64,000 nucleotides of DNA from positions 943,578 through 1,007,577 of the forward strand of contig OY970153.1 in assembly GCA_963706385.1 (NCBI GenBank). The letters are read 5' to 3'. This stretch comes from an uncultured Alphaproteobacteria bacterium. Lineage in GTDB: Bacteria; Pseudomonadota; Alphaproteobacteria; Caulobacterales; Caulobacteraceae. The notes beneath the pieces are model-generated. The model saw only the letters and a list, made by a program, of their open reading frames with translations. It had not been told where the DNA came from and ran no database searches. Below are positions 55,962-58,607 of this stretch, one piece after another (within the stretch, counting starts at the first letter, position 1; every line of letters begins with the position of its first letter). A program made the translations under genes and the position numbers.

Positions 55962-56885
55962 ATGCCCGCCGTCGCCCGCCTCAATCCGAAGGACTTCTTC
56001 ACCCGAGGAGAATGGGCGGGGCTGTCCGAGCGTTCGTCCTGGAAGGGACTGGCCCTGGTCGCCCACTGCTGGGCGGTGATCGCCGCGGTCGGGGCGGTGG
56101 CGGTGATCTGGCCGATCACCATTCCGCTGGCGGTGATGATCATCGGTGCGCGGCAGCTGGGGCTGGCCATCCTGATGCACGACGCCGCCCATCGGGCGCT
56201 GCACCCCGATCCCAAGGTCAATGATTTCGTCGGTGAGTGGTTCTGCGCGCCGGGGCTGGCGCGCTACCGCGCCTATCACCTGAGCCATCACAAGCTGGCC
56301 CAGCAGGACGACGATCCCGACCTGGTGCTCTCCGCGCCGTTCCCGATCACCCGCGCCTCCCTGCGCCGCAAGATCGTGCGCGACCTGACCGGCCAGACCT
56401 TCTTCAAGCAGCGCTTCGGCCTTTTGACCGCCAAGCTGAAAGCGCGCGCGCCCGGCCAGTCGGCGCTGGCGATCCTCGGCGGCGAGATCAGGCGCCAGCG
56501 CCGCTTCCTGACCGGCAACCTCATGCTGCTGACCCTGCTCAGCGCCGCCGGCCTGTGGTGGGCCTATTTCGTCCTGTGGCTGCTGCCCCAGGCGAGCTGG
56601 CTGCCAATGGTCACCCGCCTGCGCAACATCGCCGAGCACGCCTGCATCGCCAAGAACGAACCCGATCCGATGCGCCAGGCGCGCACCACCCGCGCGGGCC
56701 TGATCGAGCGGGCGCTGATCGCGCCCTATTTCGTCCATTACCACTGCGAACATCACATGTTCATGCACCTGCCCTGCTACAGCCTGCCCAAGGCCCATCG
56801 CCTGCTGACCGCCAAGGGCGTGATCGAGCGGATGGAGGTGCGGCCGAACTACCTGACCGTGCTCGCCATGGCCGCTGGGGCGTGA
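55962..56885 (+). CDS. Fatty acid desaturase-family membrane protein
   Basis: The three His boxes are HDAAH, HLSHH and HCEHH. Confidence 0.8.
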   Translation: MPAVARLNPKDFFTRGEWAGLSERSSWKGLALVAHCWAVIAAVGAVAVIWPITIPLAVMIIGARQLGLAILMHDAAHRALHPDPKVNDFVGEWFCAPGLARYRAYHLSHHKLAQQDDDPDLVLSAPFPITRASLRRKIVRDLTGQTFFKQRFGLLTAKLKARAPGQSALAILGGEIRRQRRFLTGNLMLLTLLSAAGLWWAYFVLWLLPQASWLPMVTRLRNIAEHACIAKNEPDPMRQARTTRAGLIERALIAPYFVHYHCEHHMFMHLPCYSLPKAHRLLTAKGVIERMEVRPNYLTVLAMAAGA

Positions 56886-57170
56886 TCGCCGACCACCGCG
56901 GGTTCATCCTCGCCAACACCCGGCTGCAAAGCCCCCCGCACACCCCCGAGATCGCCCTGCGTCTCGCCGACGAGATGACTCCGATCTGGCGGATGACCGA
57001 GGAACAACTCGGCGAGATCGGCCTGCCGCCGCCGTTCTGGGCCTTCGCCTGGGTCAAGGATCAGGTTGGAACATTCCCTAGATTTGAATAGGGCACTCCT
57101 TGCGCTCATGGTCGTGTTTATGACCAGCCAAATGCATGGTAGCGTCGCCGTGGGCACGGGAGGGCGACGC

Positions 57171-57503
57171 TTGAAGTTCATTTCGATATTGGCGGCACTC
57201 GCTATCGCTGCGCCTCCGAGCGTCGTGTTCGCCCAAGATTGCTACCCGACCAACTTCGCACCCTTCGGCGCCAAGCTGGACGAAGACCTGACCGAAGCCC
57301 AAGTAATCGCTATCACCGGCTTCCAGCCCAACACCGTGTCGCTGGACACTTGCGGTCAGAAGTCCAAGGGCGGCGATTGGTCATGCAAGATCGAGACGTG
57401 GGGCGGGGCATGTAGCGGCCAACTGATCGTCTATTTCCGCAAGAACGCTGACGGCGTTTGGGTCGTTAATAATTGGGATTCGAACGCGCCGTTGGGCTTT
57501 TAG
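57171..57503 (+). CDS. Hypothetical small secreted protein (four Cys) in the insertion cassette
   Basis: A TTG start gives (M)KFISILAALAIAAPPSVVFA|QDCYPT… Mature protein about 90 aa. …LTEAQVIAITGFQPNTV…GQLIVYFRKNADGVWVVNNW suggests a BamE/BLIP-like small beta-rich fold; this is a guess. Confidence 0.45.
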   Translation: MKFISILAALAIAAPPSVVFAQDCYPTNFAPFGAKLDEDLTEAQVIAITGFQPNTVSLDTCGQKSKGGDWSCKIETWGGACSGQLIVYFRKNADGVWVVNNWDSNAPLGF

Positions 57504-57697
57504 TCCAAGAGGGTCAGGTGAACGGTCGGGTAGCCTTCGATGGCCGCGTTCTTCACGATGTCCATGGTGAAGTCGTAGGTGCGTTCGTTGTGATCCGGCG
57601 CCGAACGCGGCACTGGACGCTCCGCTACAACGGTCATCGCGTCCGACCAGAAATCCCGGTCTACGAACTTTACGCCCTTCATTTGGTCAACGGTCAT
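57500..57697 (-). CDS. Hypothetical 65-aa protein in the insertion cassette
   Basis: MTVDQMKGVKFVDRDFWSDAMTVVAERPVPRSAPDHNERTYDFTMDIVKNAAIEGYPTVHLTLLD. Its stop overlaps the stop of the convergent ORF (TTAG). Confidence 0.35.
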   Translation of the reverse strand: MTVDQMKGVKFVDRDFWSDAMTVVAERPVPRSAPDHNERTYDFTMDIVKNAAIEGYPTVHLTLLD

Positions 57698-58364
57698 CGC
57701 TGCGATCCAATCAACTGACGGGCGAGAATAACCCGAAAGCGTAGCTCGTGCAAAACGCGCCCTGTGAGCCGAAAAGATCGCCGTTCTGGGCTTTCACCCA
57801 ATCATTTCCGATAATAAATCCGCTACTGATGTTATCGCATTGATTATTATTGGTATTTTTTGAGATTCCAATCTGACCTTTCGCATGGGCCGGCGGCCAG
57901 GCCCTGGCGCGCTATCTGCTGGACCATCCGGCCGAGGTCGCCGGCAAGCGGGTGCTGGATTTCGCCGCCGGCTCGGGCTTGGTGGGCATAGCCGCGATGA
58001 AGGCTGGGGCGAAAAGCGTGCTCTGCGCCGACATCGACGGTTTCTGCGCCGCGGCGGTGGCGCTGAACGGGCAGGCGAACGGCGTCGTGCTGGACTTCAC
58101 CGACCGGGATCTGCTGGACGGCCCGCCCCCGCCCGTCGACCTGATCGCCGCCGGCGACATCTGCTACGAAAAGCCCCTGGCCGAACGGGTGCTGGCCTGG
58201 CTGGACGAGGCGAGGCGGCAAGGGACGCGCGTGCTGATCGGCGATCCGGGGCGCAGCTACTTTCCCCGCGCGGGCCTTGAAAAGCTCGCCGAATACCAGG
58301 TGCCGACCACCCGCGAACTGGAGGACATGGAGGTCAAGAAGACCGCGGTCTGGGCCCTGTCGGC

Positions 58365-58607
58365 CTAGAAGCTGTCGTTCATCTCGGCCTCGAACATCTC
58401 CAGCACCTCGCGAGCCTCGCGCTCTTCCAGCGTCAGGCCGTCGTCGGCGTCCGCCTCGGCCTCCAGGGCGGAGAAGGCGGCTTCCGGGACCAGCCGGGCG
58501 ATCACCACGCCGCCGCGGCGAACCAGGACGCCATAGCCCGCATCGATGGTCGCTATCATCTCGGCGAACCGGGCCGGGCCTTCCTCGATGTCGATCTCGA
58601 ACAGCAT
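58365..58607 (-). CDS. Small acidic protein with a Phd/YefM-antitoxin-like N-terminus (no adjacent toxin gene)
   Basis: MLFEIDIEEGPARFAEMIATIDAGYGVLVRRGGVVIARLVPE follows the pattern f.elld.v..g..v.I.r.GkpvA.LvP. The C-terminus is acidic. Confidence 0.4.
   Translation of the reverse strand: MLFEIDIEEGPARFAEMIATIDAGYGVLVRRGGVVIARLVPEAAFSALEAEADADDGLTLEEREAREVLEMFEAEMNDSF

Follow-up and report, generated by a model that had tools for sequence, protein, structure and literature searches.

An 827-bp cassette without a recombinase in a methyltransferase gene of an uncultured Caulobacteraceae bacterium: a possible stranded integrative element

How did 827 bp of DNA that encode neither a transposase nor a recombinase come to lie in the middle of a methyltransferase gene, and what kind of element are they? 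The question is raised by positions 56882 to 58368 of the window, by which we mean the whole stretch of 64,000 nucleotides (nt) analysed here (assembly GCA_963706385.1, contig OY970153.1, positions 943,578 to 1,007,577). Our tentative answer is that the insert is a decayed, non-autonomous integrative cassette, possibly made of two accreted remnants, that has lost its recombinase and was moved in trans by a site-specific recombinase. The features that define the interruption are as follows.

56882..57091, plus strand: 5' methyltransferase fragment, 57 native codons followed by a 12-codon foreign read-through and TAG
57044..57052, no strand: left 9-nt direct repeat, TTCGCCTGG, of the host type
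57053..57879, no strand: inserted cassette, 827 bp, of lower GC, single copy
57880..57888, no strand: right 9-nt direct repeat, TTCGCATGG, with an A found in 0/11 relatives
57880..58368, plus strand: 3' methyltransferase fragment, 162 codons and a stop, with Methyltransf_16, PrmA and MTS matches

The segment 57053-57879 has genuinely been inserted into a single gene. Used as queries, the N-terminal half (N-half) and the C-terminal half (C-half) match one frame, with an overlap of exactly 9 nt, in the loci of all 11 relatives examined, the best of which is 87% identical. The first-pass annotation, which had joined the halves at PPPFWAFAW and AGGQALARY into one methyltransferase gene split by a transposase-less cassette and had pointed to relatives for an uninterrupted copy, is thus borne out. 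The relatives carry TTCGCCTGG at the repeat in ten cases and TTTGCCTGG in one; the two copies in the window agree at 8 of 9 positions and abut the insert exactly. Since the halves overlap by these very 9 nt in 11/11 relatives, the near-repeat noticed earlier is a duplicated target and not a product of chance.

The methyltransferase is broken by the insertion in this host. The native part of the N-half (56882-57052, 57 codons) begins at GTG 56882, and its frame enters the insert, adds 12 foreign codons (VKDQVGTFPRFE) and ends at the stop 57089-57091; the C-half (57880-58365, stop codon 58366-58368) has no start codon at the junction and is preceded by an in-frame stop at 57874-57876. Neither fragment contains further stops, which makes a recent insertion probable. 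With 33.6 bits against PF10294 (Methyltransf_16, cut-off 21) and 33.4 bits against PF06325 (PrmA, cut-off 22), the C-half lies above the curated cut-offs of these profiles, which places it among the class I S-adenosylmethionine (SAM)-dependent methyltransferases; in public sources its relatives are named 'predicted nicotinamide N-methyase' or methyltransferase of Caulobacteraceae. The other methyltransferase match in this genome is a single weak paralogue (E = 5.4e-5).

The cassette is foreign and single-copy in this genome. Its G+C content (GC) is 0.485-0.605 (about 0.57) against 0.65-0.71 (about 0.70) in the surroundings, in line with the AT-richness remarked upon earlier, and it occurs once in the 3.24-Mb genome. 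A search of the genome returned the cassette itself alone, and the repeat cores at its ends have no second paired copy there, only isolated matches in ordinary GC-rich sequence. Neither the list of open reading frames (ORFs) nor a profile search contains a transposase or recombinase gene within the cassette. Together with the finding that no insertion sequence (IS) of the genome has matching ends, these results uphold the view that the cassette is neither a standard IS nor a simple miniature inverted-repeat transposable element. Its internal features are listed here.

57056..57071, no strand: left inverted-repeat arm, with its core at 57059-57071, containing TTGGAA
57171..57503, plus strand: ORF1, 110 amino acids (aa), signal-peptide-like N-terminus, four invariant cysteines
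57500..57697, minus strand: ORF2, 65 aa, without a family
57779..57798, plus strand: internal target copy, a copy of the 20 nt directly left of the insertion point
57799..57879, no strand: right arm, AT-rich, 81 nt
57866..57881, no strand: right inverted-repeat arm, extending 2 nt into the right direct repeat

The ends of the cassette are better described by a dyad at the junction than by a terminal inverted repeat. The subterminal inverted repeats reported in the first-pass annotation do exist: the arms at 57056-57071 and 57866-57881 are complementary at 13/16 positions, and strictly within the insert the best 16-mer inverted repeat reaches 12/16. The latter value is equalled by 10 of 2000 end shuffles (0.5%) and by 95 of 3000 random genome pairs at equal spacing (3%), and the plain inverted repeat is only modestly significant. 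Joining the two ends yields a dyad of 15/24, equalled by 28 of 20000 shuffles (p about 0.001) and by 0.1% of genome sites. Its centre lies between 57050 and 57051, which corresponds to the step between 57886 and 57887, within the 9-nt repeat and off its middle, and a CTG stands 11-13 nt from this centre in all four half-sites, two of the element and two of the host. The arms are placed unequally: the left one starts 3 nt within the insert, and the right one passes its boundary by 2 nt. This placement, taken with the position of the dyad centre, fits the core of an attachment (att) site better than the tips of a transposon.

A second peculiarity is the internal target copy at 57779-57798, previously described as a decayed copy of the target. 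It agrees with 57030-57049 at 18/20 positions and with the target at locus L011 at 19/20. When the insert was subjected to 1000 dinucleotide shuffles and compared with 80 nt of flank, none reached 18/20 and the best value, 17, came up twice, so the copy is not due to chance. Its counterpart is the host half-site as far as 2 nt before the proposed centre.

The same cassette is apparently present in a second host. Four public runs, coded X1 to X4, were compared with the window over 56500-58500, all as contigs. In X1, a 203-nt contig covers 56963-57099 and crosses the left junction; its eight listed differences all fall in the host part (57004-57023), and another 66 bases do not resemble the window. 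The stretch 57258-57499 is covered without any difference by a 242-nt contig. A 500-nt contig covers 57524-57930 and crosses the right junction, with two listed differences within the cassette (57629 and 57826) and 93 further bases unlike the window, in which a diverged version of this methyltransferase can be read by eye. The right-hand A (57885) is not among the differences listed for the contig that covers it, and the flanks proper to the window, at 56768-56901 and 57974-58375, have no cover in X1. The simplest reading of these alignments is that a near-identical cassette occupies the same position of the gene of a different species. X2, from the study that produced X1, holds pieces of the cassette as well as several diverged empty sites, in which 57052 is joined to 57936, 57937 or 57949. 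In X3 and X4, labelled freshwater sediment metagenome, the cassette pieces are 100% identical to the window, and X3 additionally contains a C-half piece that is 100% identical.

We propose that the cassette would be the remnant of a site-specific integrative element after loss of its recombinase, similar in kind to the cis-mobilizable elements (CIMEs). Once joined, the ends would make up an imperfect palindrome built around a 9-10 nt core that the target shares, TTCGC(A/C)TGG(G), and this layout of palindrome and core would represent attP facing attB. A larger relative would have supplied the recombinase in trans, with strand exchange inside the core, and integration into the conserved stretch that encodes PPPFWAFAW followed by AGGQALARY would have broken the methyltransferase gene. 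The A of the right-hand repeat would derive from the element and not from a later mutation. In the simplest view, the internal 20-nt copy would be a fossil att site left by an earlier round of tandem accretion at this target, so that the cassette would be a fusion of two remnants, one (57053-57778) bearing the two genes and the other being the 81-nt arm (57799-57879). In this genome, which has no matching helper, the cassette would now be immobile. The class of the enzyme, the point of crossover, the history of accretion and the role of the cargo are what we infer.

Several observations find a common explanation in a site-specific recombinase acting in trans, namely the shared core, the off-centre dyad, the apparently shared right-hand A and the occurrence at the same site in two hosts. 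This A in addition speaks against independent staggered cuts, because those would leave each host with two repeat copies of identical sequence. Tandem accretion, as described for CIMEs in PMC5704250, would explain the internal target copy. Measured against the properties of CIMEs, the cassette has lost integration and transfer genes; its ends are candidate attL and attR sites, with a shared core of 9-10 nt and a dyad of 15/24, while the target's own dyad is not significant; and the same target site is used in different hosts, as judged from short X1 contigs of ~4.5x depth. Full-length elements that co-occur at the same att site were not among the sequences found.

Several points weigh against the stranded-element interpretation. 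A full-length relative with a recombinase was found neither at this site nor elsewhere in the collections searched; on plasmids, the cassette DNA and both cargo proteins have no match, and on viral contigs neither end and neither protein alignment has one. A family of site-specific elements would be expected to recur, and the rarity with which this site is hit counts against the interpretation. The genome contains no serine recombinase, and no link was established between its tyrosine recombinases and the cassette. The host target's own dyad is 10/24, a value that 13% of genome sites match. The bases at the centre of the proposed core are missing from the internal copy, which is consequently not an intact att site. 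The TTGGAA present in both arms may simply represent the promoter hexamers of the two convergent genes; a promoter-like site, a consensus match only, lies in the right arm on the minus strand, facing ORF2 (TTGGAA at 57871-57866, AATAAT at 57848-57843). The evidence for the second host consists of short contigs at the depth given above, 30 identical nt at the left junction are common to filled and empty sites, and a 31-mer graph could in principle have misjoined the two there. Such a chimera is disfavoured because window-type flanks are absent from X1 and the cassette there has two differences of its own.

The search for further insertions at the same site adds to these objections. With the intact orthologue P0009 (from L003) as query, the gene was found in 331 of 400 genomes of the family, and no second insertion at this site was seen among the matches listed for these 400 genomes and in 15 follow-up genomes, picked from the per-genome table for low scores or multiple matches. 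Among the follow-ups, the gene is frameshifted in G414 and reduced to a C-terminal remnant in G266, diverged or paralogous in six (G173, G229, G248, G293, G308 and G338), present as a full-length diverged copy in G151 and as two full-length copies in G128, and cut by contig ends in five (G004, G106, G153, G157 and G313). A collection of 5.8 billion proteins contains 79 short proteins that match the N-half. The window's own product P0014 (69 aa) is alone among them in carrying a foreign tail right after FWAFAW; none of the other 78 has one, 69 of them continue into the native AGGQ after the motif, and the rest show an early end, a frameshift, small substitutions or an artificial tail. The tails of P0016 and P0060 (SLIHISEPTRPY and LLYTSPSPRDRG) resemble translated sequencing-adapter sequence at contig ends, which we presume them to be.

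Independently of the cassette, this survey indicates that the methyltransferase is lost now and then in the family, as in the frameshift near residue ~108 in G414 (L021/L024, G414:C13:7673-8313) and the remnant of residues 139-214 in G266 (L023, G266:C9:28956-29183). A separate observation concerns L028 (G153:C108, 2215-2373), where the contig with the N-half ends in TTCTGGGCC, 9 nt before the insertion point, and the C-half was not found in that fragmented assembly; this end could be due to chance or to an assembly break caused by a polymorphic insertion.

The alternative that survives best is a mobile insertion cassette (MIC), i.e. passenger genes between the inverted repeats of an IS, moved in trans by the DDE transposase of that IS with a 9-bp target duplication; the C-to-A difference would then have arisen by mutation afterwards, and the internal target copy would be a relic of other origin. 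We regard this as unlikely on balance, if quite conceivable. A 9-nt target duplication, 8/9 identical, does flank the insert exactly, inverted repeats lie near both ends, the cargo includes no transposase, and MICs located inside genes are described in PMC5444012. However, none of the ISs of this genome, to which the comparison extends, has the ends of the cassette: the ends of a 9-copy IS5-type element, a 2-copy IS110-type element and an IS1595 element in the window are unrelated. No other paired copy of the repeat cores was found in the genome, the arms lie off the tips and at unequal distances, and the plain inverted repeat is of a quality equalled by 3% of random genome pairs. The C/A asymmetry apparently holds in the second host as well, and the internal target copy is left unexplained.

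Two of the compared elements deserve a record of their own. The IS5-type IS is ~856 bp long, has a DDE_Tnp_1 match, has ends that begin with CTAGGTTCTGTGGAC and is present in 9 nearly identical copies; the IS110-family element has a Transposase_20 match.

G000:C1:2183291-2183725 and 3053568-3054002: IS5-type copies, two of the nine places
G000:C1:647209-647454 and 1342085-1342330: IS110-family element (Transposase_20), ~1349 bp, copies 99.8% identical

Rather unlikely in our estimate is a single insertion by whatever mechanism, followed by spread between species through homologous recombination, after transformation or conjugation, via the conserved blocks on both sides; the shared site would then say nothing on site-specificity. 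This would account for the shared right-hand A, and the rarity of the cassette suits a one-off event, no other interrupted copy being present among the family matches listed or the 78 short proteins. The window and X1 are identical over 29 nt on the left (57024-57052) and over ~34 nt on the right (57880-57913, a length that follows from the listed differences), and these flanking blocks are also the best conserved ones in the relatives. RecA-dependent recombination within ~30 nt of identity is very inefficient, and here both crossovers would have had to fall within ~30 nt of identity beside flanks that are ~70-90% identical. The first entry of the cassette, the end dyad and the internal target copy would also go unexplained.

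It appears improbable that the cassette is an enzyme-less homing element of a new kind that returns to one conserved motif of a housekeeping-type gene across species, with the att-like ends and the internal half-site copy as its own recognition module and the copy acting as a guide or decoy for a helper in trans. The more specific proposal that the internal 20-nt copy would serve as an RNA or DNA guide, or as a decoy, for an enzyme in trans, in the manner of guide-bearing ISs, is very improbable. It draws on the non-chance nature of the copy, on its match to the sequence that abuts the insertion point, on a position that, should the promoter-like site be real, would fall within the ORF2 5' leader, and on the presence of the cassette at the same site in two hosts. 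The non-coding parts, however, show no structured RNA (z-scores -1.18, -0.11 and -0.83), no Rfam family reaches its threshold in 56800-58100, and the two IS110-type copies of the genome share with the cassette nothing beyond chance words of 10-15 nt.

An assembly chimera, or a pair of separate genes, the two flaws that the first-pass annotation had itself named as fatal to its reading, is next to negligible, since the halves are one gene in 11/11 relatives, both junctions are present in contigs of the independent run X1, and pieces in X3 and X4, including the C-half piece of X3, are fully identical. Other known classes were set aside as well. An IS110/IS1111-type element with a guide RNA is contradicted by the lack of a DEDD transposase in the cassette, of related ends and of a structured RNA. 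Integron gene cassettes have a 3' attC with paired core sites and boundaries inside a core site; here the repeats stand at opposite ends, ~800 nt apart, and by eye the boundaries do not fit. In group I and II introns, a U-ending exon is paired with a G-ending intron, and by eye no register of the 9-nt repeat gives this pairing; nor is there an intron match in Rfam over 56800-58100, and the non-coding parts fold no better than shuffles. A Xer/dif module was set aside by eye.

The two genes of the cassette, predicted earlier as small convergent ORFs, are indeed conserved genes, as their homologues show; they converge so that their stops overlap by 2 nt in TTAG (57500-57503). ORF1 most likely starts at TTG 57171, 7 nt after GGAGGG (57158-57163), and its signal peptide was assessed by eye. 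It has four homologues of 84-51% identity, in which the four cysteines are invariant. ORF2 has two homologues of ~70% identity and equal length, and corresponds to 5 representative clusters among 1.84 billion proteins. Neither protein has a match above chance level in Pfam, PHROG or NCBIfam, and in an Atlas search ORF2 gave no usable match and all ORF1 scores were <0.9.

Structure prediction, which had been suggested for the secreted protein, gave a model of ORF1 with a predicted local distance difference test score (pLDDT) of 77.8, compared with 46.8 for ORF2. The ORF1 model resembles the BLIP/BamE/OsmE-like fold, a type of small periplasmic domain. The match is consistent but middling: the best VIA-align hit is 3d4e with Z 7.7, where Z <8 is middling (root-mean-square deviation, rmsd, 3.7; 75 aligned residues), followed by 9uu1 (Z 6.7), 4dm5 (Z 6.5) and BamE chains (Z 6.4-5.3), with rmsd values of 2.3-3.8 across 61-75 residues overall, and the best Foldseek E-value is 0.056. 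Such a predicted resemblance gives nothing firm on the function of ORF1.

Relatives of the cargo are scattered. With the ORF1 alignment as query, one scan of genome contigs and one of metagenome contigs returned a spurious 13-residue match (L014) and a true relative (L015), 54% identical, beside which ORF2 and the methyltransferase are absent. The sample of 400 family genomes contains two distant ORF1-like genes (44% and 29%), the former (L017) flanked by ordinary genes, and neither ORF2 nor the methyltransferase was found beside either of them. No cargo relative was detected in 400 genomes of the class sample or in 276 genomes of genus g2. The listed contigs of ORF1 homologues differ in length from those of ORF2 homologues and, on present evidence, the two genes appear to occur together only here.

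Some side observations concern this cargo and the neighbourhood. An exact 13-nt direct repeat, CAACGGTCATCGC, occurs at 57628-57640 and 57688-57700, 60 nt apart, in the 5' end of ORF2, and its second copy spans the ORF2 start codon. Beside the ORF1 relative in the metagenomic locus L015, the segment 337-1255 (minus strand) holds two overlapping ORFs of 202 and 163 aa that are alike by eye and have no Pfam match. In the window, the GTG start of the broken methyltransferase (56882) overlaps the stop codon of a fatty-acid desaturase gene that lies upstream of it; the locus is flanked by this desaturase gene together with one for a UbiA prenyltransferase, and at its other end by a gene for a UbiD decarboxylase. 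An 80-aa ORF without a Pfam match (58365-58607, minus strand) overlaps the methyltransferase stop.

If the cassette is a stranded site-specific element, tiny recombinase-less cassettes would still be able to move from one species to another and to insert at one particular conserved codon position, and this genome would hold two of them, one in the methyltransferase gene and one in sfsA. They would represent a neglected route for orphan genes into bacterial chromosomes, and their att-like ends would offer a way to find unknown site-specific recombinases; the cargo in this case comprises two protein families with almost no relatives. If it is an ordinary MIC or a one-off insertion, the locus reduces to a minor annotation point, a disrupted methyltransferase and two hypothetical genes.

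Among known systems, the closest comparison is with CIMEs, for which tandem accretion of site-specific integrative elements has been described (Pavlovic et al. 2004, as cited in PMC5704250). The cassette resembles them in the absence of integration and transfer genes, in direct repeats that contain the target sequence, in the internal third target copy that is expected after accretion, and in the dependence that it would have on the recombinase of a related element. It differs in being far smaller (0.83 kb), in lying in the middle of a protein-coding gene that is not restored, in having no parent integrative and conjugative element, integrative and mobilizable element or prophage found at the site, and in an internal copy that is not an intact att site. 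An example of a MIC is the qnrS2 cassette of Aeromonas plasmids (PMC5444012). Both are small passenger cassettes without a transposase, with inverted repeats near their ends and a short target duplication, and both can be gene-internal; the present cassette differs in having no known parent IS with matching ends, in repeats that are subterminal and unequal, in carrying a copy of its target, and in being single-copy in this genome, the other copy seen being at the same site in another host. The cassette would work as CIMEs and MICs do, as a non-autonomous unit reliant on the enzyme of another element; with neither a parent element at the same att site nor a parent IS with matching ends found, it agrees fully with neither class.

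Within this genome, the first-pass annotation had drawn a parallel with the sfsA cassette. The parallel stands insofar as the cassette carries a piece of its own target and fails insofar as it has no functional replacement for the gene that it breaks: the sfsA cassette provides a working substitute for the last third of its gene, whereas the methyltransferase gene is left broken, and by eye the two have only a short GGTCAAG motif in common. A surrogate N-terminus read through the internal copy was considered and rejected, since its frame is closed upstream (57742-57744) and downstream and, judged by eye, resembles the methyltransferase nowhere else. Some prophages and islands that insert within a gene bring a second copy of the gene end they displace, as e14 does in icd. 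The cassette is like them in carrying a copy of its target gene near the attachment site, but the copy is 20 nt long, lies 81 nt from the junction and restores nothing. What is new here is that an almost identical cassette extends across both junctions of a diverged orthologue in X1.

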